Shown here in pieces: positions 4,733 to 24,075 of a stretch of 32,000 nucleotides of DNA. Position 1 is the stretch's first letter. Each line of letters opens with the position of its first letter. The notes below the pieces were generated by a model. The model had not been told where the DNA came from. It made no database searches and worked only from the letters and a program-made list of their open reading frames with translations. The position numbers and the translations under genes were made by a program. The stretch is from Caedibacter taeniospiralis (GTDB taxonomy: Bacteria > Pseudomonadota > Gammaproteobacteria > Francisellales > Francisellaceae), in assembly GCF_002803295.2 (NCBI RefSeq), contig NZ_PGGB02000008.1:30001-62000 (forward strand), in the 5' to 3' direction.

Positions 4733-5161
4733 ATGGAAACGACAACAATTGAGCTAAAGCCCTCTAAAGCGAAAATAATTGTAGTATCGCTACTTTTTAT
4801 GATTTCATTTTTTATCGTTTTTTATTTATTGCATGCGTGGTTTTTCTATTTAGGGCTATTGTTCTGCCTGTTTGCCGCAATGGGTAGCCTCATGAGTTAT
4901 TACAGCAAACAGAAAATTAATTGTATTCATGTGATTGAAACTGCGTACGCACGAGAAATAAATATTCTCTATGCTAAAACATGGCTTAATAATATATTCA
5001 TTGAGCGTTATATGCTGGTTGCGGGCGTTATTTACATGAAGTTAAGGGTAGCCCAGCATAAACCGATAAGGCTTTGGCTATTTAGGGATAATTTTACAAG
5101 CCTGGAAGCTCGCTACCAGCTCATTAAGGTGTTAATGTTGGCAAAAGATAGATTAAAATAA
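4733..5161 (+). CDS. Small inner-membrane protein, YgfX/CptA-like (DUF1434-like)
   Basis: 142 aa with two N-terminal TM helices. The C-terminal motif ..IRLWLFRDNFTSLEARYQLIKVL parallels E. coli YgfX ..HLWLAADSMDEAEWRDLRRIL as I recall it. Similarity judged by eye only. Confidence 0.45.
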   Translation: METTTIELKPSKAKIIVVSLLFMISFFIVFYLLHAWFFYLGLLFCLFAAMGSLMSYYSKQKINCIHVIETAYAREINILYAKTWLNNIFIERYMLVAGVIYMKLRVAQHKPIRLWLFRDNFTSLEARYQLIKVLMLAKDRLK

Positions 5162-5249
5162 ATGATCTCTAAATTATAAAAATGAATTTTTATAATCATT
5201 CACTCTCTGCTATCGTCTGTTTTCCGTTTTGAAGAATCGAAGTCCTGGA

Positions 5250-7112
5250 ATGAAGTTATCAAATATTGAAATTGTTATTGCTAATAGCACACACTGCCGT
5301 TTTGCCGAAGCGATTTCCAGACAAATTGAAGAGAGCGCCAAACAAAGAAAGACAGGTATTGCAAAGCGTAGTGTAAGCTATCTGCAGGGCAAACTACGCA
5401 CGCAACATGCGGTCATTGCGATTGATCAGCTGTTAAATACGGTGGCTGGTTTTTGCTACATAGAATCCTGGCAAGATAAGCGTTATGTCTCCAATTCAGG
5501 ACTCATTGTTTTTCCCGCCTATCGAAATCTGGGCTTATCAAAGATGATAAAAAACAAGGCATTTGAACTTGCGAGAACCTATTACCCAGAGGCTAAGATT
5601 TTTGGTTTAACCACCAATCCGCAAGTGATGCACATCAACTATGAATTAGGCTATGAGCCTGTAGCATTCACGGGACTGACTACCGATAAGACATTTTGGC
5701 AGGGGTGCAAGAGTTGCGTTAATTTCCCTATTTTACAATCAAAAGAATATCAAAACTGTCTGTGTACGGCGATGCTGTATGATCCTGTGAGAAAACAAGC
5801 ACAAAGAGAGCAGCAAAAGGAGCAGAAAATGAAAGTAATCGTCGCTTTTAGTGGAGGATTGGATACGAGTTTTTGTGTCAAATATTTGCAACACGAACAT
5901 GGGCTTGAAGTGCATACTGTCACCGTCAATACGGGTGGTTTTAGTACGATTGAGCTGACAGAAATTGAGAAGAAAGCGTATCAACTGGGGGCTAAAACAC
6001 ATCAATGTATTGATGCAACTAAAGATTTTTATCAGCAATGTGTGAAGTTTTTGATTTTTGCGAATGCGCTAAAAAATAACTGCTATCCCCTGTCGGTGAG
6101 TGCTGAGCGCACCTTTCAAGCCATGACAATCGCTAAAGCCGCTAATAGCATGGGCATCAGTAAAATCGCACATGGATGTACGGGAGCGGGGAACGATCAG
6201 GTGCGCTTTGATCTTATGTTTCATATTTTGTGTCCTCATATTGAAATTATTACCCCTATCAGAGATTTAAAACTCTCGCGCAGCAAAACTCAGGATTATT
6301 TGATTAAGCATGGAATTGCCTGCTCACAAAGCACAAAAAATTATTCAATCAATAAAGGCTTATGGGGAACTTCTGTGGGTGGTGTTGAAACCTTGACTTC
6401 TCATTTATATTTAACGGATGAGGCATGGCCAACGGGGCTAAGTAAAAGCACAAATGAAGCAGAAATGCTGAAAATTACTTTTATAAATGGTGAGCCGATT
6501 GCCTTAAATGATGAGTTATCCAATTCCATCCAAGTCATTCAAAAACTTAATAGCATTGCCAGCCAATACGGTATTGGACGTGACATTCACATCGGCGATA
6601 CCATTATTAATATCAAAGGACGTGTAGGCTTTGAAGCTGCGGCTCCATTGATATTGATTAAGGCGCATCACCTGTTGGAAAAACATGTACTGACTAAGGC
6701 GCAGCTTAAAATTAAAACCCTGCTTACCGACACCTATGCCGAGATGGTGCATGAGGGTCAGTTTTTGGATCCTGCAGTACGAGATGTTGAAGCACTATTA
6801 TTGTCATCACAAGCAAAAGTAACAGGAGATGTTTTCGTACTGCTTAAGCCATACCACTTTGTGCTGTTAGGCGTGCAATCTGAGCATGATTTAATGCAGG
6901 CGCAAAGTGCCAAATATGGAGAGGAAAACACAAGCTTTAGCGGTAATGATGTCAAAGGCTTCACTAAGGTGATGAGTAATCAGTTAGCCACCTATTACCA
7001 GCTACAAAACAACCTCAAAGTGACCAAGTCACTGGAGTTGCGTACTTTTACTGATTTTGACGACTACCCCGTCCGCTTCGCGTCCACCCCTTCGCTAACG
7101 AAGGGGAATTAA
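5250..7112 (+). CDS. argG: Fusion protein: N-terminal GNAT-type acyltransferase (arginine-cluster type) plus argininosuccinate synthase
   Basis: Track ORF starts at TTG 5229; ATG 5250 (MKLSNIEIV..) is more likely. Residues ~1-190 resemble the GNAT gene that precedes argG in Bacteroidetes (..SAKQRKTGIAKRS..AGFCYIESW..SGLIVFPAYRNLGLSK..). From MKVIVAFSGGLDTSFC (5829) onward it is ArgG (HGCTGAGNDQVRFD, SINKGLWGTSVGG). The last 27 codons and the stop lie inside the MITE at 7031-7230. Confidence 0.85.
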   Translation: MKLSNIEIVIANSTHCRFAEAISRQIEESAKQRKTGIAKRSVSYLQGKLRTQHAVIAIDQLLNTVAGFCYIESWQDKRYVSNSGLIVFPAYRNLGLSKMIKNKAFELARTYYPEAKIFGLTTNPQVMHINYELGYEPVAFTGLTTDKTFWQGCKSCVNFPILQSKEYQNCLCTAMLYDPVRKQAQREQQKEQKMKVIVAFSGGLDTSFCVKYLQHEHGLEVHTVTVNTGGFSTIELTEIEKKAYQLGAKTHQCIDATKDFYQQCVKFLIFANALKNNCYPLSVSAERTFQAMTIAKAANSMGISKIAHGCTGAGNDQVRFDLMFHILCPHIEIITPIRDLKLSRSKTQDYLIKHGIACSQSTKNYSINKGLWGTSVGGVETLTSHLYLTDEAWPTGLSKSTNEAEMLKITFINGEPIALNDELSNSIQVIQKLNSIASQYGIGRDIHIGDTIINIKGRVGFEAAAPLILIKAHHLLEKHVLTKAQLKIKTLLTDTYAEMVHEGQFLDPAVRDVEALLLSSQAKVTGDVFVLLKPYHFVLLGVQSEHDLMQAQSAKYGEENTSFSGNDVKGFTKVMSNQLATYYQLQNNLKVTKSLELRTFTDFDDYPVRFASTPSLTKGN

Positions 7113-7230
7113 TGGAGAAGCTTTCCAAAAATTCCCCTTCACTGGTGAAGGGGTGCCGAGCCTGCCTGACCACTCCAGAGCGGTCAGGTCTGCGAGGCGG
7201 GGTAGTGCAGCAAAAGTGCGTAACTCCAGT
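7031..7230. mobile_element. 200-bp MITE-like palindromic element with terminal inverted repeats and a 5-bp target-site duplication
   Basis: TIRs ACTGGAGTTGCGTACTTTTACTG (7031-7053) and the reverse complement of CAGCAAAAGTGCGTAACTCCAGT (7208-7230). Direct repeat AAGTC at 7026-7030 and 7231-7235. Internal hairpins at 7087-7106, 7134-7153 and 7165-7188. No coding capacity of its own. Confidence 0.7.
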
Positions 7231-7271
7231 AAGTCAGATGTGGCAAATGCAATGATAACAGGATAGTGGTT

Positions 7272-8255
7272 ATGGAAGAGAAGCGTATTACAACAGAGCG
7301 TAAAATCAAAGTAGGAGTCATGGGTGGGGCTGGGTATACGGCTGGTGAGCTTTTACGCATCTTAATGCTCCATCCAAAAGTCGAGGTTGTGTTCATTCAT
7401 AGTGAATCAAAACAAGGTGAACTCATTGCTGCAACTCATCATGACTATTATTTTATTGATGATAAACGCCGATTTGATGGAGAAATTCATCAAAATGTTG
7501 ACGTGGTTTTTTTATGTGTTGGTCACCATCAAGCGAAAGCAACACTCATCAAGCATGTCTTCAACCCAAAGACAAAGATAATCGATCTAAGCCAGGATCA
7601 TCGTGATACAAAACAAAATCCGACATTCATGTATGGTCTGGCAGATGTTGAAAAAAAACGCATAGCCTCAGCGCAGAACATTGCCAATCCTGGTTGTTTT
7701 GCTACGGCAATCACACTGGCACTTGTGCCTTTTTCTGCCCATTTTGAAGGTGATATTCACATCAATGCGATTACTGGCTCAACGGGGGCAGGGGTCATGC
7801 CAAGGGACACCTCACATTTTAGCTGGCGTTCAAACAATATTTCGGTTTATAAGGCATTTAGTCATCAGCATTTGGTAGAGATAAAGCAAGCGCTGAAGCT
7901 TCCTGACACAAGCCAGCTTCTTTTTATTCCAATGCGTGGGAATTTCAGTCGCGGCGTTTTTGCCTCTGTTTATTTTAAATCGTCATTAACTGAGCAAGGC
8001 GCCAAACTGTTATTGCAACAATTTTACGAGGACAGCCTTTTTGTCAAAGTACTTGAGCATGAACCCGATTTGAAAATGGTCGTGAACACCAATGCCTGTA
8101 TGTTGTCGATTAAAAAGCATGGGGATTATTTGCATATTGTCAGTGTTATTGACAATTTAATTAAAGGCGCTTCAGGACAGGCTGTACAGAATATGAATCT
8201 GATGTTTGGGTTACCTGAAGCGTTGGGGCTAAGGTTCAAAGCAAGCGTATTTTAG
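7272..8255 (+). CDS. argC: N-acyl-gamma-glutamyl-phosphate reductase
   Basis: KIKVGVMGGAGYTAGELLRIL Rossmann N-terminus and catalytic Cys in ANPGCFATAI. Bacteroidetes-like short form. Start is ATG 7272 or GTG 7266; the GTG would overlap the reconstructed pre-MITE argG stop. Confidence 0.9.
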   Translation: MEEKRITTERKIKVGVMGGAGYTAGELLRILMLHPKVEVVFIHSESKQGELIAATHHDYYFIDDKRRFDGEIHQNVDVVFLCVGHHQAKATLIKHVFNPKTKIIDLSQDHRDTKQNPTFMYGLADVEKKRIASAQNIANPGCFATAITLALVPFSAHFEGDIHINAITGSTGAGVMPRDTSHFSWRSNNISVYKAFSHQHLVEIKQALKLPDTSQLLFIPMRGNFSRGVFASVYFKSSLTEQGAKLLLQQFYEDSLFVKVLEHEPDLKMVVNTNACMLSIKKHGDYLHIVSVIDNLIKGASGQAVQNMNLMFGLPEALGLRFKASVF

Positions 8256-8283
8256 GTTTTGCCAGAATTTTCACCAATTTTGA

Positions 8284-8345
8284 TTGGCATAAATGTAGGG
8301 GCGTATTGCATACGCCCTTGTGATCAGCAATAAGGTCAATGCCAA
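8284..8345. repeat. REP-like nested hairpin between argC and argF' (same family as 3497-3665, opposite orientation)
   Basis: Outer stem TTGGCAT (8284-8290) / ATGCCAA (8339-8345). Inner hairpin GGGCGTAT-TGC-ATACGCCC (8299-8317). Its reverse complement, TTGACCTTATTGCTGATCACAAGGGCGTATGCAATACGCCCCTAC, aligns with 3501-3545. Confidence 0.6.
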
Positions 8346-8375
8346 ACAATTCATTCAAAAAAACAGGAGCAAAAC

Positions 8376-9389
8376 ATGCAACAGTATTTAAGTATTAAAG
8401 ATATCGACAATATCCAGGAGGCGATTCAATCGTGCATTGAAATCAAGAAAAGCCCTCATGAGAGATCGAGTTTGGGAAAAAATAAAACACTGGGTATTAT
8501 TTTTTTAAATCCAAGCTTACGCACCAAAATTTCAACCGTTAAAGCCGCACAGAATATCGGTTTAAATGTTTTGCCGATCGATGTCAACAGCGGTTGGGCG
8601 CTTGAATTTGAAGAGGGTGTGGTGATGGATGGGGATAAGCCTGAACATATTAAAGAAGCTGCTCAAGTGATCGCCAGTTATTGCGATATGGTTGCTATTC
8701 GTTCCTTTGCAAAACTCCAAGATAGAGAGAAAGATTATCAAGAGCAAATATTTAATGCTTTTAAGAAATACACTGATTGTCCGATAGTTAATTTAGAGTC
8801 GGCATTGCGTCACCCCTTGCAAAGCCTTGCTGATATTTTGACGATTGAAGAGTACAGGAAACGTAAAAAAATAAACAGACCCAAGGTCGTATTAAGCTGG
8901 GCGCCACATGTTAATCCTTTGCCGCATGCGGTAGCAAACTCCTTTGCCGAAGCTATGCAGCTTATGGACTACGATTTTGTGATCACGCACCCTGAAGGTT
9001 ATGAACTGGATGTTGAGTTTACGGGAGGTGCGCAAATTTGCTATGACCAAGACGAAGCGCTGAAAGATGCAGATTTTATTTATGTAAAAAATTGGTCAAG
9101 CACCAAAGAGTACGGCAAAGTGACTAACAAAGACCAAAACTGGATGATCAGTGAAGCCAAACTTAACCATGCTAAGAATGCCAAGGTGATGCACTGCTTA
9201 CCAGTAAGACGCAACGTGGTGATTGCTGATGATGTGCTTGATTCTCCGCGATCTATCGTGATTGAACAAGCGGAAAACAGGCTTTACGCTGCGCAATATG
9301 TGCTATCTGAAATGGTGTCAGCGTTCAAGTATAAAGATCAAGCGGTGATAGCGACTACTGACGAGGTTTATGCAGATGGCATTAAGTAA
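8376..9389 (+). CDS. argF': N-acylornithine carbamoyltransferase, predicted N-succinyl-L-ornithine type (ArgF')
   Basis: NPSLRTK (not STRTR), RHPLQSLAD (not HPTQ), SWAPHVNPLPHAVANSFAE, ITHPEGYELD and MHCLPVRRN match the Bacteroides fragilis ArgF' sequence as I recall it. DGDKPEH carries Pro89 (8640-8642) at the acyl-specificity position. Confidence 0.85.
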   Translation: MQQYLSIKDIDNIQEAIQSCIEIKKSPHERSSLGKNKTLGIIFLNPSLRTKISTVKAAQNIGLNVLPIDVNSGWALEFEEGVVMDGDKPEHIKEAAQVIASYCDMVAIRSFAKLQDREKDYQEQIFNAFKKYTDCPIVNLESALRHPLQSLADILTIEEYRKRKKINRPKVVLSWAPHVNPLPHAVANSFAEAMQLMDYDFVITHPEGYELDVEFTGGAQICYDQDEALKDADFIYVKNWSSTKEYGKVTNKDQNWMISEAKLNHAKNAKVMHCLPVRRNVVIADDVLDSPRSIVIEQAENRLYAAQYVLSEMVSAFKYKDQAVIATTDEVYADGIK

Positions 9390-10194
9390 AACGGCTAACG
9401 TGATTAAACTGGGAGGACGCGTCATGGATGATCAGTTGGAATTAAACGCATTATTAAAAGCGATTTCGCTTTGGCAACATCCGTGCATTATTATCCATGG
9501 CGGGGGTGAGCAAGTCAGTAAACTCAGCAAAGACTTAGGACTTAAACCACAATTTATCGATGGGCGGCGCGTCACGGATAAAGCTTCTTTAGAACTTGTG
9601 ATCATGATCCTTGCAGGTCTTATTAATAAAACACTGGTTGCCAAGCTTCAAGCTAATGGCGCTAATGCTTTTGGTTTAAGTGGTGTTGATGCAAATCTGT
9701 TGTTAAGCGAGAAACGCGGCATTGAAAAACACGATTTTGGCTTTGTCGGTGACATGAAGTGGGTCAATGTGAGTGTATTAATAAATATGTTAGACAGTGG
9801 TTTATTGCCCGTACTAGCACCCATCACACATAATGGCAGTGGGCAGCTGTTAAATACTAATGCCGATACGGTGGCGTATGAGGTTGCAAAGAGTATGGCA
9901 AATGTGTGCGATTACCAGGTTAGTTTGTATTACTGCATGGATTTGCCTGGAGTGTGTGAGAGCGTAGAAAATCCGCAATCATTGATTGAAGAGCTTGATC
10001 TAAGAGGCTATCAGGATTTGCGCACGCAGGGCAAAATTCATCAGGGGATGCTGGTAAAGCTTGAAAATTGCTTTAGTGCGATAGAGTCTGGGGTCAATAA
10101 AGTCGTGATCAGTAATGCACAAAATATAGCAAAAGCGTTGGTGAATGAACCACATAAGGCAACCACGATACAATTAAAAGAGGCAGTGAATTAA
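9370..10194 (+). CDS. argB: N-acylglutamate kinase
   Basis: VIKLGGRVMDD.., IIIHGGGEQVSKL, FIDGRRVTD and NTNADT are amino-acid-kinase family motifs. Overlaps the argF' 3' end; ATG 9376 is an alternative start. Confidence 0.85.
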   Translation: MQMALSKTANVIKLGGRVMDDQLELNALLKAISLWQHPCIIIHGGGEQVSKLSKDLGLKPQFIDGRRVTDKASLELVIMILAGLINKTLVAKLQANGANAFGLSGVDANLLLSEKRGIEKHDFGFVGDMKWVNVSVLINMLDSGLLPVLAPITHNGSGQLLNTNADTVAYEVAKSMANVCDYQVSLYYCMDLPGVCESVENPQSLIEELDLRGYQDLRTQGKIHQGMLVKLENCFSAIESGVNKVVISNAQNIAKALVNEPHKATTIQLKEAVN

Positions 10195-11310
10195 ATGGAA
10201 ACTGAAGTTTTAGCCCTGGAAGCATTGCGCGCGCAGATAGCCGAAAAACAGCAGCAAGCGTTAAATTTATTAACGTCTTTAATAGGAATTCCATCGATTT
10301 CAACCGAAGAAGAAAAAAGTGCGCTGTTTATTCAGGCGTGGTTAGCAAAGCATAAGATTCCATCCACGCTTATTGGCAATAATGTCTGTGCTAAAAATAA
10401 GTATTTTGATCAAGAGAAACCTTCGATTTTATTGTTATCTCATCACGATACCGTGCCACCTGCTAAGAGTTACACGCGTGACCCCTATCATGCCGAAATG
10501 ATCGAGGGCAAATTATACGGTTTAGGCGCTAACGACGCAGGGGGAGCATTGGTAAGCCTAATCACGGCATTTACCCACTTTTACAACATGCAAAACTTAC
10601 CCTTTAATCTCTTGTTGTGTGCAGCTGCGGAAGAGGAAATTTCTGGCAAAAATGGCGCCGAGCTTGCTTTGCCTTTTTTTGGTGAAATCGACTTTGCCAT
10701 CGTCGGTGAGCCCACGAGTATGGAGCTTGCTGTCAGTGAAAAGGGACTCATGGTGTGCGATTGTGTGGCGCATGGCAAAACAGGGCACGCCGCACGCAAT
10801 GAGGGAGATAATGCGATATTAAAAGCCGTTAGCGACATTAACTGGATCACAGGTTATCAGTTTGAAAAAACCTCGCCAACCTTGGGTGTGGTGAAGATGA
10901 GCGTGACGGTGATAGAGGCGGGAGTAAAACACAATGTCGTGCCAGAGAAATGCCATTTTGTTGTCGATGTGAGAACGACAGACGCCTACGGCAATGAAGA
11001 AATATTGGCGATCATGCGTCAATATATGTGCGCGGAAATCACGCCAAGATCAATGAGAATTAGACCCACGGCAACCCCACTTGATCATCCACTGATGCAA
11101 GCGCTTTTGGCTAAAAATATCAAATCTTACGGTTCACCAACCACGTCAGATCAAGCGATACTGAATTGCCCAAGCGTTAAATTTTCACCTGGGGATTCAA
11201 AGCGCTCACACAGTGCCGATGAGTTTATTTATGTTGCACAAATTAACGAAGGCGTGCAGTTTTTTATTGAATTTTTTCATGAACTAAAGGATCAACCATG
11301 GCGGAAGTAA
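10195..11310 (+). CDS. argE: M20-family deacylase (ArgE-like; acetyl/succinyl-ornithine or -citrulline deacylase)
   Basis: 371 aa. LLLSHHDTVP, metal-ligand region AAEEEISG and GHAARNEG are typical of the ArgE/DapE M20 peptidase family. The ATG directly follows the argB stop. Confidence 0.8.
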   Translation: METEVLALEALRAQIAEKQQQALNLLTSLIGIPSISTEEEKSALFIQAWLAKHKIPSTLIGNNVCAKNKYFDQEKPSILLLSHHDTVPPAKSYTRDPYHAEMIEGKLYGLGANDAGGALVSLITAFTHFYNMQNLPFNLLLCAAAEEEISGKNGAELALPFFGEIDFAIVGEPTSMELAVSEKGLMVCDCVAHGKTGHAARNEGDNAILKAVSDINWITGYQFEKTSPTLGVVKMSVTVIEAGVKHNVVPEKCHFVVDVRTTDAYGNEEILAIMRQYMCAEITPRSMRIRPTATPLDHPLMQALLAKNIKSYGSPTTSDQAILNCPSVKFSPGDSKRSHSADEFIYVAQINEGVQFFIEFFHELKDQPWRK

Positions 11311-12713
11311 ATGAGAATATACAGCACAGGCAAAAATTATGGGGAGGGCGTTTTACGGAAGAAAATAACCCTTTGTTTGTGCGCTTTAATGAGTCATTAA
11401 GCGTTGATTATCGACTGCTGCCCCATGATATAAAAGCCACCAAGGCATTTACACAAGCTTTGAGTGAGATAGCCGTTTTGTCAGAGAAAGAGTTGCATAA
11501 GCTGCATCAGGCACTGGATGAAATCGAGAAAGAAACTCGTGAAAATCCATCATTAATCCAACAAGCAATCTATGATGGCGTTGAGGATGTCCATACTTTT
11601 GTTGAGCAAAGCTTAGTGGATAAGATAGGAGAGCTTGCCTACAAGGCAAATACAGGGCGCTCACGCAATGAACAGGTTTCATGCGCCACAAGATTATGGG
11701 TGCTTGAGCACATTGATATATTGCTCCATTTAACCAAAGCCTTACAAAATGCGTTGGTTGAACAGGCACAAGAAAACATTGATGTGGTTGTCATGGGTTA
11801 TACCCATTTACAGCAAGCACAACCGATTACCTGGGGGCATTATTTTTTATCGTTTTATGAGATGTTTAAGCGTGATTGCGCACGCCTTTTAGATGTGAAA
11901 AAGCGCGTAAATATTTCACCACTAGGCATGGGGGCGATTGCAGGTAATTCATGGAATCTTGATCGCAAGAAAATGGCTGAAAACCTTGGATTTGCTGATA
12001 TTGTGCAAAACAGCTTAGATGCGGTAAGTGATCGCGATTATATTATTGAGCTTTTAGCGAATATTAGCTTGATTGGCGTACATTTAAGCCGCTTCGCAGA
12101 AGATATGATTATCTATTCAAGTAGTGAATTTAACCTGGTTGAAATGAGTGATTTGGTGGCGACGGGTTCATCGTTGATGCCGCAAAAGAAAAACCCGGAT
12201 GCGATGGAGCTCATACGCGGTAAAGCAGGACGCTTAAACGGATATCTCATTGCACTTTTAACAACAGTTAAAGGATTGCCATCGGGCTATAACAAGGATT
12301 TACAAGAGGACAAAGAAGCCTTATTTTTGGCGGTTGACAGTGTAAGCAACATGATTAAGGTGACAACGATCACCGTTCAAAGCTTAACTATTAAGCGTAA
12401 TAAAAACTATGATCATAGCTTGTGTGTGGCAACTGAACTTGCGGATTATCTTGCCAGAAAGGGGATTCCCTTTAGAAAAGCACACCATATCGTCGGACAG
12501 CTTACAGCTTACGCTTTGGCTTGTAGCAAGTCATTAAGCCAGTTGAGTCTTGGCGAATTTCGACAGTTTTCAGCTGAGATTAAAGAGGATGTTTATCCAA
12601 TATTAACGATTGACTCAGCCATTAACAGCAAAACAGCCATTGGCGGCACAGCAGTTGCAAATGTTGCGCTAGCCATAGCAGAAATTAACAGGGATATTGA
12701 AAACGGGATGTAA
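11298..12713 (+). CDS. argH: Argininosuccinate lyase
   Basis: KLWGGRFTE N-terminus, GYTHLQQAQPITWGH, and the fumarate-lyase signature GSSLMPQKKNPD. SD AAGGA lies 6 nt upstream. Overlaps the argE-like 3' end by 13 nt. Confidence 0.93.
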   Translation: MAEVNENIQHRQKLWGGRFTEENNPLFVRFNESLSVDYRLLPHDIKATKAFTQALSEIAVLSEKELHKLHQALDEIEKETRENPSLIQQAIYDGVEDVHTFVEQSLVDKIGELAYKANTGRSRNEQVSCATRLWVLEHIDILLHLTKALQNALVEQAQENIDVVVMGYTHLQQAQPITWGHYFLSFYEMFKRDCARLLDVKKRVNISPLGMGAIAGNSWNLDRKKMAENLGFADIVQNSLDAVSDRDYIIELLANISLIGVHLSRFAEDMIIYSSSEFNLVEMSDLVATGSSLMPQKKNPDAMELIRGKAGRLNGYLIALLTTVKGLPSGYNKDLQEDKEALFLAVDSVSNMIKVTTITVQSLTIKRNKNYDHSLCVATELADYLARKGIPFRKAHHIVGQLTAYALACSKSLSQLSLGEFRQFSAEIKEDVYPILTIDSAINSKTAIGGTAVANVALAIAEINRDIENGM

Positions 12714-19642: not shown

Positions 19643-19719
19643 TGGTAGCTACGACTGGACTTGAACCAGTGACCCCAGCATTATGAATGCTGTGCTCTAA
19701 CCAACTGAGCTACGTAGCC
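19643..19719 (-). tRNA. tRNA-Met, elongator type (anticodon CAU)
   Basis: Reverse complement GGCTACGTAGCTCAGTTGGTTAGAGCACAGCATTCATAATGCTGGGGTCACTGGTTCAAGTCCAGTCGTAGCTACCA. Close to E. coli metT as I recall it. G1-U72, not the initiator C1xA72. A lysidine-modified tRNA-Ile2 cannot be formally excluded. Confidence 0.85.
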
Positions 19720-20894: not shown

Positions 20895-23800
20895 ATGTTG
20901 CCCATACTCGATAAATTCTCAACCCAATACGCAATCTCTGAGCAGTTTGCCAAAGAGTTAGCCGATACTGAGTTTAACGGCGATATTCACAATGATTACG
21001 CCACGAGAATCACTAGCTCCATCGACAACAGCATTTATCAAGTTGTGCCCGAACTGGTTATTTTCCCCAAAAGCCACCTCGATATTGAAAAGATTTTTCG
21101 TCTTGCCGCTACTGAGCCCTTTCGAAGCCTGAAATTTAGTGCCCGCGGCGCGGGCACGGGCACTAATGGTCAATCCTTGACTACAGGAATTATCATTGAT
21201 ACCAGTCGTTATATGAATAATGTTGTGGAAATCAATCTTGAGAATAATTATGTTATTGTCGAGCCTGGGGTGGTCTTAGATCAGCTCAATGAAATTCTTG
21301 CTCCTCATCATGTGTTTTTTGCGCCCAACCTATCCCCTGGTAATCGCGCCACAATCGGAGGCATGACCAGCACCGATGCCTGCGGCAAAGGTTCGCGGAT
21401 TTATGGGCGCACCAGTGAACACCTGCTTGAGCTTGAGTGCGTTTTGAGTGATGGTGAACGAGTATCCTTTGAAGAAATAAGCGCCTTAAATCTAAATAAG
21501 TTAATTGCCAGTTGTACGCAACGAAACTCACTCCTGGCACATATCTACCAGGTAGTTGATAGTGAAATTATTCAAAAGTACGACAAAATTAAGGCTCAAT
21601 TCCCCAAGTTAGACAGGTTTATGACAGGTTATAATCTGGCAAAATGTTATGATCCCATCCTGCAGAAAATCAACATTAATCATCTAGTCTCTGGTGCTGA
21701 AGGAACTCTGGCTTTTATCACCCGGTTAAAACTGAAGCTAACCCCTATTCCTCACCACAAAATTCTATTTGTGATCAGCTACAGTGACTTTGATCAAGCG
21801 CTGCGCGATGCTAAGAGTCTATTGAGTCTTAATCCTGCCGCGATTGAAACCATTGATGATAATATCTTAAAGCTCGCTAAAGAGGACGAAATTTATCCAC
21901 AAATTCGCCCGATGCTGGAAACCCATGCCAATCATGAAATCGCCGCCATCAATCTCGTTGAGTTTATTGCACACAATGAGGACGAGCTCAGTAAATCCAG
22001 CATCATTGCCCAACAACATTTTAAAGCGTATAACCGCCTTTTTCATTTAGCCTCCGACAAGGATGAAATGGCTATCCTGTGGGAGCTTAGAAAAAAAGGG
22101 GTTGGACTCTTAGGTGCCATGAAAGGTAATCGAAAACCCATCCCCTTTATGGAGGATACAGCGGTTCCTCCTGAGAACCTGGCTGATTATATTATTGAAT
22201 TAAGAGCCTTACTTGATAGTTATAATCTACGCTATGGCATGTTTGGACATGTTGATGTTGGTTGCCTGCATATGCGCCCTGCCTTAGATATGAATGATCC
22301 CAAAGATCAGGCACTGGTAGTAAAACTGACCAAAGAAGTCAATGACCTGGTAAAAAAATATGCTGGAGTCTATTGGTCAGAGCACGGAAAAGGCTTTAGA
22401 AGTGAGTACGTCAAAGACTATTTTGGCGAAGAGTTGCACATCTCCTTACAGAAAATTAAAGGAGCCTTTGATCCTGACAATAAGCTAAATCCAGGAAAAA
22501 TTGTTGTCCCCTTTCAAAGCGAGGATCAATTAGTGAGGGTAAATGGTCCATTTAGAGGCCTCCAGGACGCCAAGGTCAATCCACAGACGCAGGCGATGTT
22601 TTCTGGTGCATTCGATTGTAATGGCAATGCTGCCTGTTTGAACTACCACCCAGATCAAGTCATGTGCCCATCTGCTAAAGTTTCACACAACTGGGTGTAC
22701 TCACCCAAGGGAAGGGGCGCAGCGCGCTCTTACGTGAATGGTTAATACAACTTGCTGAAAAAAACCATCAGCCCCAACCTCTCACCAAAACACCACTTGG
22801 CACCAGGAGTAAAATAAATACCAGCGATTTCTCTTATGAGGTCTACCAGTCACTTGATAAATGCCTTGGCTGCAAAGCATGCGCCACCGCTTGCCCTATT
22901 AAAGTTGATATTCCCGCGATGAAGCCCCTATTCTTAGCCGAGTATCACAAACGTTACCAACGCCCCTTAAAAGACTATGCAATAAAGTACGTTGAGAAAA
23001 CTGCCAAATGGCAAACTTTGTTTCCTCATTTTATGAACTCACTACAGTCCACGGCTTTTGTAAAAACATGGGTTCAAAACAAGCTCAAACTGATGGACGC
23101 CCCGCTACTCTCCAAGGAAACGCTCAAAGCAGGGCTTAAGAAACGCAATGCCCCAAAGTTTAGCTTTGCTGATTTGCGCACTAAGTGCCAGAGTAATGAC
23201 ACACAGAAAGTCGTCTGCATCGTTCAAGATGCGTTTACGAGTTTCTATGATGCTGAAGTTGTGCTAGCGGTATACGATCTACTTACCAGGCTTGGCTTCC
23301 ATGTTTATGTGTTGCCTTTTTATGAAAATGGTAAAGCAGCACACGTTAAAGGTTTTCTACCTTATTTCCAAAAGAAAGCAGCACACGCCACCGCTTTTTA
23401 TAATAAAATTGCACATTTACAAGTTCCATTAGTAGGTATTGATCCTAGCATGACACTGGTCTATCGCGATGAATATAAAACCATGTTGAAAGATGAGGTT
23501 AAATTTAAAGTTGAACTGCTTCAAGAGTGGCTGGTCAAGCAGCTACCGCTGATAAATCTTCCTGCCAGAGATGCTACTGAGAGTGAAGTCATTTCTCTGT
23601 TTGCACATTGTTCTGAGCGTTCACTGGCAGCTGTATCAATGATCCACTGGCAAAAAATATTTAAAGCCTTTGGCGTAAAACTTTCCATTGAAAAAGTTGG
23701 TTGTTGCGGCATGGCGGGCACTTTTGGTCACGAAACAGACAATCTTGAGTTATCCAAAAAAATTTATGCGTCCAGCTGGCAAAAAAAGTTCGATGTCAAC

Positions 23801-23914
23801 AATACAGATAAGACACACCTTGCCACTGGATTCTCATGCCGCTGCCAGGTTAAGCGCTTTAGTAATAAGCAGCTATTGCATCCAGCGCAATTGCTTGTGA
23901 AACTATTGAATTAA
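20895..23914 (+). pseudogene. ydiJ: YdiJ-family FAD-linked oxidase / Fe-S oxidoreductase (D-2-hydroxyglutarate dehydrogenase-like), disrupted by a frameshift
   Basis: ORF 20895..22745 carries the FAD/PCMH domain (STDNSIYQVVPELVIFPKS, ARGAGTGTNGQS). A different frame, open from 22679, continues ..SALLREWL..CLGCKACATACPIKVDIP.. into ORF 22919..23914 (CCG-type C-terminus, VGCCGMAGTFGHE). The frames are joined by removing one copy of the AAGGG duplication at 22707-22716. Confidence 0.8.

Positions 23915-23998: not shown

Positions 23999-24075
<77 letters not shown>

Follow-up and report, generated by a model that had tools for sequence, protein, structure and literature searches.

An old Bacteroidota-type arginine operon with a fused GNAT-ArgG gene, probably of the N-succinyl route, in a gammaproteobacterium of the Fastidiosibacteraceae lineage

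The succinyl route of arginine biosynthesis was established in Bacteroides fragilis and extended by genetics to the GNAT protein BT3761 and the M20 protein BT3549 (PMC8121099, PMC7311316); BT3761 of B. thetaiotaomicron is, from these genetics, a predicted N-succinylglutamate synthase (PMC8121099). GapMind 2020 presents the pathway as a Bacteroidetes route (PMC7311316), and Kublanov et al. 2017 described the GNAT type of ArgA as limited to Bacteroidetes and Caldithrix abyssi. The knotted carbamoyltransferase of this route, N-succinylornithine carbamoyltransferase (SOTCase, ArgF′), has a counterpart of the same superfamily branch in the gammaproteobacterium Xanthomonas campestris, the N-acetylornithine carbamoyltransferase (AOTCase). 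More recently, a GapMind 2026 preprint inferred the use of succinylated intermediates in Steroidobacter denitrificans and its relatives, which are proteobacteria, from position 92 of ArgF′. Here, we analysed a 32-kb stretch of DNA (the window) that carries an arginine operon at 5250-12713 on the + strand. We consider it likely, with a probability of about 0.78, that this is a functional Bacteroidota-type arginine operon of the succinyl route, residing after an old transfer in the chromosome of a gammaproteobacterium of the Fastidiosibacteraceae lineage. What is new is the host lineage and the altered layout of the operon; the pathway itself is known, and this is no new kind of system.

The operon consists of six + strand open reading frames (ORFs), packed tightly or overlapping, which encode in order GNAT and argininosuccinate synthase (ArgG) as a single ORF, ArgC, ArgF′, ArgB, an M20 deacylase and ArgH (Table 1). 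All of them are intact and carry their signature motifs, and SLRT, HPLQS, HCLP and SINKGLWGTSVGG were found in the operon proteins. The original prediction, made from the letters alone, had read this region as a Bacteroidetes-type succinyl operon within a gammaproteobacterial core-gene context. Each sequence feature that it described was found where it had been placed, and its core reading was borne out by the carbamoyltransferase and by five Bacteroidota-like neighbours.

Table 1. Positions of the operon genes and other features in the window, and of the conserved upstream block in other genomes
Feature	Position	Strand	Basis
Upstream control region, candidate promoter/operator (predicted function)	5130..5249	+	sequence reading, conserved block
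Upstream block in L002	5640-5762		
Upstream block in L003	455-563		
Upstream block in L082	7170-7280		
Upstream block in L083	6010-6127		
Fused GNAT::ArgG ORF	5229/5250-7112	+	
GNAT domain, residues 1-192 of the fused protein	5250..5825	+	homology to Bacteroidota operon GNATs, AlphaFold2 fold
Short K/Q/E-rich linker, then ArgG domain, same ORF	5826..7112	+	TIGR00032
argC	7266..8255	+	TIGR01850, 269 bits
argC-argF′ spacer, 120 nt (argD site in sister genomes)	8256..8375	.	
argF′, knotted acyl-ornithine carbamoyltransferase, predicted SOTCase type	8376..9389	+	PDB scores, residues, tree
argB, N-acylglutamate kinase, short form without C-terminal GNAT domain	9370..10194	+	TIGR00761, 200 bits
M20 deacylase (ArgE/DapE family), predicted N-succinylcitrulline desuccinylase, ArgE′ of the Bacteroidetes pathway	10195..11310	+	PDB score, homology
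argH, argininosuccinate lyase, canonical proteobacterial type	11298..12713	+	TIGR00838, 562 bits; ASL_C2
tRNA genes Thr-TGT, Asp-GTC, Met-CAT, Arg-CCG	1886-2045, 19643-19719, 23999-24075		Rfam

We compared the operon with the closest described systems. With the Bacteroides pathway (BT3717 ArgF′, BT3761 GNAT, BT3549 desuccinylase) it shares the type of ArgF′, the same GNAT family in the place of ArgA and the same M20 family, but it differs in its gammaproteobacterial host, in having GNAT and ArgG as one polypeptide, and in its canonical proteobacterial ArgH. Its gene order is that of operons in Flavobacteriia and Marinilabiliales, although the window cluster lacks argD and the proline genes of the Bacteroidota operons and has Asn in place of R178 of ArgF′. 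The X. campestris pathway resembles it in the knotted carbamoyltransferase, in N-acylated ornithine as the substrate, in deacylation after carbamoylation and in belonging to a gammaproteobacterium; the genes around the window argF′, however, are not of the Xanthomonas type. In the argAGCBEH cluster of Caldithrix abyssi (Cabys_1732-1737), the same GNAT-type ArgA adjoins argG, and in Calditrichia metagenome-assembled genomes (MAGs) the two are fused (P0136, P0141) in the order fused gene, argC, argD, argB, M20, argH. Their fused proteins are only ~50% identical to that of the window and form a separate fusion clade, so that the Calditrichia fusion probably arose independently; their cluster has no argF′ and their ArgH is not of the canonical type, and the Caldithrix GNAT was reported to be acetyl-specific. 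As for the route of Steroidobacter, its ArgA candidate (ACG33_RS14135) is by description unrelated, and S. denitrificans itself has no identified ArgE, whereas the window has a Bacteroidota GNAT and an M20 deacylase.

The acyl group was assessed on ArgF′. Its best profile was the knotted acyl-ornithine model NF003384 (N-acetylornithine carbamoyltransferase; 286.6 bits, cut-off 288) versus 131 bits for the ornithine carbamoyltransferase (OTCase) model TIGR00658, in agreement with the earlier claim that this enzyme is not an OTCase. Knotted transcarbamylases are recognised by SxRT, HPxQ, HxLP, a proline-rich loop, an extended 80's loop with the substrate-binding Trp, and R110, E142 and K236 in B. 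fragilis numbering (PMC4581275). The window protein has SLRT, HPLQ, HCLP, WAPHVNPLPHAV, W74, R109, E141 and K238, which places it among the knotted acyl-ornithine transcarbamylases, and the B. fragilis catalytic or binding residues W75, R110, E142, H176, K236 and R278 are all kept. Among PDB sequences, its nearest characterised homologue was the succinyl-specific SOTCase of B. fragilis (1js1/2fg6; 364 bits, 52% identity), versus 182 bits and 37% identity for the acetyl-specific AOTCase of X. campestris (3kzc).

The residues that separate the two enzyme types gave the same picture. The codons for MDGDKPEH span 8625-8648, P89 being encoded by CCT at 8640-8642, and HMMER matched every column of this segment to DGDKPEH of B. 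fragilis SOTCase (1js1/2fg6), DGDKEEH of its P90E mutant (2g7m) and DGDTEEH of X. campestris AOTCase, confirming the predicted Pro, and not Glu, at the specificity position. AOTCases are distinguished by E92, N185 and K302 (X. campestris numbering), where SOTCases carry A/S/P/V/Q, P and V/I/E, respectively (PMC4581275). All three positions are of the SOTCase type in the window, namely P89, P183 (8922-8924) and V282 (9219-9221), and correspond to Pro90, Pro181 and I/V282 of the B. fragilis enzyme. The same holds for the gammaproteobacterial relatives described below (the gamma clade), where 11 of 11 ArgF′ sequences have V at the third position and P at the second, the first being P, A, S, V or T. 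A neighbour-joining (NJ) tree rooted on AOTCase (Kimura distances and 100 bootstraps, as for all trees here) placed the gamma clade inside the Bacteroidota SOTCases as sister to Flavobacteriia (83%). Together, these results strongly suggest that ArgF′ works on N-succinylornithine.

The first enzyme of the pathway is not missing but fused to ArgG. The original prediction had a GNAT gene as the partner of argG; a GNAT is indeed present, although as the N-terminal domain of a 620-aa ORF (627 aa when read from 5229) with no stop between the domains, and the gene caller gives a product of 616-620 aa for this gene in two public assemblies. The GNAT domain scored borderline with Pfam Acetyltransf_1 (20.2 bits versus a cut-off of 20.7). 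Its AlphaFold2 model (predicted local distance difference test, pLDDT, 91.6; predicted template modelling score, pTM, 0.87) yielded 596 PDB fold matches at E <= 0.001, and the best 50 of the 596 were all GNAT-family acetyltransferases. The best matches include the N-acetylglutamate synthases 2r8v of N. gonorrhoeae and 5yge/5yo2 of M. tuberculosis (E ~1e-8, template modelling score 0.62). The domain thus has the GNAT superfamily fold, and it carries the acyl-CoA-binding motif R-N-L-G-L-S at residues 92-97. It is 49-53% identical to the GNAT preceding argG in the operons of Lutibacter and Marinilabiliales, and by this likeness to the Bacteroidota operon GNATs a synthase of the BT3761/Cabys_1732 type stands in the place of ArgA or ArgJ. 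Because of the genetics of the homologous BT3761 (PMC8121099), we predict that the domain is an N-acyl-, most likely N-succinyl-, L-glutamate synthase and hence the ArgA equivalent of the Bacteroidetes pathway. A C-terminal cysteine motif, C153-x2-C156 ... C170-x-C172 (C-x2-C-N13-C-x-C, encoded at 5706-5767), is invariant in 60 of 60 homologues, fused or unfused, and is shared with the Bacteroides GNAT; it is probably a structural Zn site of the N-succinylglutamate synthase family.

The ArgG part matched TIGR00032 with 295 bits over residues 202-589 and is 52-61% identical to Bacteroidota ArgG; against PDB sequences it scored at best 172 bits, versus 54 bits for the E. coli-type ArgG. Fused products of 583-630 aa were found in the window, Cysteiniphilum, Fastidiosibacter, Facilibium, a Fangia-like contig and five more MAG lineages, and the fusion is kept in all 11 gamma-clade members, whereas GNAT and argG are separate genes in Lutibacter and Marinilabiliales. 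The linker is variable and rich in K, Q and E, and the fusion is real, since some members have no Met at the ArgG boundary. In the window, an AGGAG (5818-5822) is retained 6 nt 5′ of an ATG at 5829, so separate translation of ArgG would also be possible. At the other end, the ArgG profile stops short of the last ~30 codons of the ORF, which run into a hairpin repeat, CCCCTTC-N6-GAAGGGG, with two copies at 7087-7106 and 7134-7153 and none elsewhere in the window (zero expected by chance). The first copy lies within the end of the ORF, and a third GC-rich hairpin follows the two in the argG-argC spacer (region 7087-7187). A small repeat element seems to have extended the fused ORF.

Fused GNAT::ArgG proteins also occur in the Calditrichia MAGs, L090 and Flavobacteriales insect endosymbionts. 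A single origin of all these fusions was unsupported, because three fused clades were interleaved with unfused Bacteroidota sequences, which indicates at least three independent fusions. The GNAT has no kinase domain, which in classical ArgA senses arginine. It is a long shot that the pathway of this clade has functionally departed from the Bacteroides model, that joining the first enzyme to the seventh could couple flux or feedback between pathway entry and exit and so replace this sensing domain, and that the change from K/R178 to Asn in ArgF′ of the Cysteiniphilum/Fastidiosibacter/window subgroup could mark an acyl group other than succinyl.

We then compared the proteins of the operon one by one. 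Identities to Lutibacter were 50% for GNAT, 55% for ArgG, 51% for ArgC, 60% for ArgF′, 44% for ArgB, 51% for M20 and 31% for ArgH; in the same order, those to Marinilabiliales were 49-53, 52-57, 51, 52-54, 40-41, 42-50 and 31-34%. E. coli K-12 gave no match for GNAT, ArgG and ArgF′, and 31, 30, 24 and 48% for ArgC, ArgB, M20 and ArgH. For ArgC, this amounts to 48-51% with Bacteroidota versus 31% with E. coli (best PDB match 143 bits), and for ArgB to 40-44% versus 30% (145 bits for the best PDB match, 73 bits for E. coli). The M20 deacylase scored 339 bits with PDB 3ct9, 81 bits with the next structure (DapE) and 53 bits with E. coli-type ArgE. We take 3ct9 to be BT3549. The deacylase shares 42-51% identity with its positional counterpart, the M20 gene of the Bacteroidota operons, versus 24% with E. 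coli ArgE; both comparisons make it a BT3549-type protein and not an ArgE or ArgJ. Its predicted role as the desuccinylase follows from the BT3549 genetics (PMC7311316). The claim that the neighbours look Bacteroidetes-like therefore holds for GNAT, ArgG, ArgC, ArgB and M20 (40-57%, versus 24-31% for E. coli) and fails for ArgH.

ArgH is 48% identical to the E. coli protein and 48-50% to ArgH of Pasteurellaceae/Enterobacterales, but 31-34% to the ArgH of Bacteroidota and Calditrichia operons. Beyond its own family, its nearest relatives are ArgH of Pasteurellaceae, Enterobacterales and Acidobacteria (47-51%), and in the tree it grouped with Proteobacteria and Acidobacteria, split from the Bacteroidota/Calditrichia operon ArgH with 100% bootstrap. 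Not all genes are thus of Bacteroidota affinity, and the operon is a mosaic. For this reason, and because argD is missing here, the suggestion that a whole alternative pathway had been acquired was not upheld.

The gene order is the same as in Lutibacter, apart from proC, argD, proA and proB, which stand between argC and argF′ in that genome, and the same as in Marinilabiliales. A 391-aa class-III aminotransferase (argD) occupies this place in Cysteiniphilum (L002 8616-9791), L083 and L084. These sister-genome ArgD proteins are 50-57% identical to Bacteroidota ArgD, that of Cysteiniphilum being of the Bacteroidota type. In the window, Fastidiosibacter, Facilibium, L082, L086 and L089, argD is absent without trace, and tblastn of the window found no remnant. 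The distribution of argD on the tree indicates repeated loss; argD belonged to the ancestral operon and was cleanly lost here. The original prediction had noted that argA, argJ and argD are absent from the cluster. No class-III aminotransferase, ArgA or ArgJ was found anywhere in the 32-kb window, although for argA the statement is only formally true, the GNAT domain being the ArgA equivalent (PMC8121099). We also observed a perfect hairpin with an 8-bp stem, GGGCGTAT-TGC-ATACGCCC, at 8299-8317 in the argC-argF′ spacer where sister genomes have argD.

The operon is shared by a group of related genomes. The closest ArgF′ homologues are those of Cysteiniphilum (78-79%), Facilibium subflavum (64%) and a 'Francisellaceae bacterium' MAG (62%), followed by hundreds of Flavobacteriia (57-61%); homologues of the fused protein and of ArgH were additionally found in Fastidiosibacter lacustris and Fangia hongkongensis. 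The same operon is present in Cysteiniphilum, Fastidiosibacter, Facilibium, a Fangia-like contig, Francisellaceae MAGs and further MAGs, and among gammaproteobacteria it turned up in this one family-level group only. NCBI taxonomy places Cysteiniphilum, Fastidiosibacter, Facilibium and Fangia in the Fastidiosibacteraceae, Thiotrichales. The window proQ is 84% identical to that of Cysteiniphilum. An origin from Legionellales or Coxiella, suggested by a GC content near 42% and by the original prediction, was rejected, as the nearest relatives are the four genera named. The host is a Cysteiniphilum-like gammaproteobacterium of the Fastidiosibacteraceae type, a family akin to Francisella. In the literature searched, we found no report of this operon in Fastidiosibacteraceae. 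In the databases (NCBI, UniRef), the orthologues of Cysteiniphilum and Facilibium are called 'acetylornithine carbamoyltransferase', and the fused protein goes by 'argininosuccinate synthase'. Cysteiniphilum litorale is listed as a cysteine auxotroph, not as an arginine auxotroph.

Two public assemblies contain the locus itself with few or no differences, and the genes upstream of it are also the same (99-100% identity: L093, GCA_013572825.1, contig JACCDZ010209778.1; and L001, GCA_031972495.1). The assembly with contig numbering above 200,000 may be a eukaryotic host genome that carries the bacterium as an associate or a contaminant. The chromosomal neighbours of the operon vary between genera, with proQ lying within a few kb in three genomes. 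In the more distant members L083 (1-5302) and L089 (17169-20992), the operon adjoins a lysine/diaminopimelate cluster (dapB, dapA, dapD-like, lysA), and L083 additionally carries a YoeB/YefM toxin-antitoxin pair immediately upstream, with an insertion sequence (DDE_Tnp_1) nearby.

To place the transfer, we considered trees and composition together. The gamma clade was monophyletic for ArgF′ (89% bootstrap), ArgG (100%) and GNAT (97%). GC content was 0.422 in the cluster and 0.425 in the flanks, GC at third codon positions (GC3) was 0.414 and 0.412, and the relative synonymous codon usage of cluster and flanks correlated at 0.91, against 0.88 +/- 0.03 for random gene subsets. Because GC3 and codon usage equal those of the flanks, the acquisition would be old, the cluster having since been inherited vertically. 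The composition check set by the original prediction thus came out indistinguishable, which keeps lateral acquisition as an ancient event and speaks against a recent island. Of the two explanations offered there, lateral acquisition and an under-recognised distribution of the route, each is partly right, since the transfer is ancient and the whole family shares the cluster. Our best reading is a single ancient transfer from a Bacteroidota-like donor to the ancestor of the family, followed by vertical descent. In this scenario, the family ancestor would have acquired GNAT-argG-argC-argD-argF′-argB-argE′ with the gene order unchanged, GNAT and argG would then have fused through loss of a stop codon, and the operon would end in a lyase of the canonical proteobacterial type. 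argD would later have been deleted in several lineages, that of the window included, and the cluster would thereafter have been inherited vertically with rearrangement and fully ameliorated.

Several observations weigh against this overall interpretation. The succinyl group is anchored in B. fragilis by H176, R178 and R278 (PMC4581275); in the window the His (H178) and R278 are kept, while R178 is replaced by Asn (N180, 8913-8915). Position 178 is K or R in 108 of 108 Bacteroidota-like homologues and K in X. campestris AOTCase; the only proteins with Asn were those of the window and Cysteiniphilum and one that is Fastidiosibacter-like. Cabys_1732, the GNAT homologue of Caldithrix abyssi, was reported on the basis of unpublished work as an N-acetylglutamate synthase (Kublanov et al. 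2017), which makes the acyl donor of the first step uncertain for the whole GNAT family. The 32-kb window holds no N-acylornithine aminotransferase. On the side of the transfer, our trees are distance trees and not maximum-likelihood trees, and in the E. coli-rooted NJ trees of ArgC, ArgB and M20 the gamma clade was not nested in Bacteroidota. Owing to the long outgroup branch and low support, these three trees are uninformative on direction, so that the direction of transfer rests on the ArgF′ tree and the parsimony of the distribution. As to residue 178, Asn reads as a lineage-specific change in the acyl pocket; because of it, we treat the succinyl call as a strong inference and not as a demonstration.

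These points bear most on the possibility that the intermediates are N-acetylated, like those of the Xanthomonas-type AOTCase pathway and in keeping with the annotation, the likeness of the operon to Bacteroidota being phylogenetic only. The database names of the orthologues, the NF003384 score just below the cut-off, the loss of R178 and the activity assigned to Cabys_1732 would all fit such a pathway. However, the family model behind these names lumps the two activities together, and BT3717 ArgF′ is likewise misannotated, according to GapMind (PMC7311316). Position 178 is basic in both enzyme types, including the acetyl-specific X. campestris enzyme, so it is non-discriminating and offers no argument for acetyl. 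The window has Pro where Glu gives acetyl preference, with all three of the E92/N185/K302 positions of the succinyl type, and a mutation at this one position switches specificity, according to what GapMind cites from Shi et al. 2007 (PMC7311316). We therefore consider an N-acetyl pathway unlikely.

A different donor is also conceivable: a third lineage, for example Calditrichota-like, may have given the operon to both groups, or a gammaproteobacterial lineage may have given it to Bacteroidota. The basal or paraphyletic position of the gamma sequences in the ArgC, ArgB and M20 trees, the low support at deep nodes and the fused GNAT::ArgG of Calditrichia MAGs and L090 would be in line with this. 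Yet the AOTCase-rooted ArgF′ tree nests the gamma clade in Bacteroidota, the gamma ArgG and GNAT domains are 58-61% identical to unfused Bacteroidota sequences versus ~50% to the Calditrichia-type fusions, and the Calditrichia cluster lacks argF′ altogether. Moreover, of 106 Bacteroidetes genomes analysed by GapMind, 70 have a gap-free arginine pathway, and 69 of these are predicted to use the route considered here (PMC7311316), against one family-level group of gammaproteobacteria in our analysis. Another donor thus appears quite improbable, and a transfer from a Bacteroidota-like donor is preferred.

It is hardly credible that the operon arrived recently as a genomic island, or that Bacteroidota DNA was joined to a gammaproteobacterial contig during binning or assembly, for although the window's own genome is known solely from metagenome-type assemblies and the location of the operon varies between genera, its junction with the tim44-like/cptA-like genes upstream is repeated in two independent assemblies, it occurs in cultured isolates, including Cysteiniphilum with a 2.6-Mb contig, proQ stays close by in three genomes, it contains a proteobacterial ArgH, and a recent island is ruled out by GC3 and codon usage together with borders that carry no integrase, transposase or tRNA.

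The remaining flanks are ordinary proteobacterial housekeeping genes (rlmH, yaaA, rimI, glsA, crcB, ubiB/ubiE, proQ, aspS, tol-pal), as had been predicted for the gammaproteobacterial surroundings. None of the four tRNA genes of the window adjoins the operon, so that it has no tRNA-linked integration site. In the downstream part of the window, ydiJ (D-2-hydroxyglutarate dehydrogenase, 20895-23914) is broken into ORFs 20895-22745 and 22919-23914; another reading frame runs on past the stop as ...GKGRSALLREWLIQLAEK...CLGCKACATACP, which indicates a single frameshift near 22710-22720, so that ydiJ is either a pseudogene or misassembled.

The sequence before the fused gene holds a perfect 11+2+11 palindrome, ATTATAAAAAT-GA-ATTTTTATAAT, at 5173-5196, and the upstream control region also contains the motif AATGAATT and a TGCTATCGT block ~45 nt 5′ of the start codon. 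A block reading AATAATGAATT(T/A)T ... TTTGCTATnGT is kept at this place in five genomes, those of the window, Cysteiniphilum, Facilibium, the Fangia-like contig and the MAG L083. The palindrome may be an ArgR operator, its TGAAT-like half-sites being reminiscent of ARG boxes. In L084, L086 and L089, a divergent LysR-type regulator lies upstream of the operon instead of the conserved block. The Rfam scan of the window returned the four tRNAs only, with no riboswitch and no leader, and the promoter/terminator scan of the window found fewer sites than in shuffled controls.

Based on the above results, we propose the following pathway. The GNAT domain would acylate L-glutamate, most likely with succinyl-CoA, and the N-acylglutamate would be phosphorylated by ArgB and reduced to the semialdehyde by ArgC. 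An aminotransferase encoded outside the window would give N-acylornithine, ArgF′ would carbamoylate N-succinylornithine to N-succinylcitrulline, and the M20 hydrolase would strip off the acyl group to release citrulline, which the ArgG domain and ArgH would convert to arginine.

The succinyl route and the GNAT-type ArgA, described as essentially confined to Bacteroidetes (the GNAT also in Caldithrix), are now placed in a gammaproteobacterial family. The locus illustrates cleanly how an operon can pass between phyla and then undergo gene fusion, with a lyase of other origin and repeated aminotransferase loss, and the fusion is a natural construct for the study of N-succinylglutamate synthase. 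Cysteiniphilum, an emerging pathogen, and several protist symbionts belong to the family concerned, and for these genes public annotation masks both the likely substrate and the fused first-step enzyme; because the GNAT is hidden in this way, metabolic reconstructions of these bacteria would wrongly show ArgA as missing.

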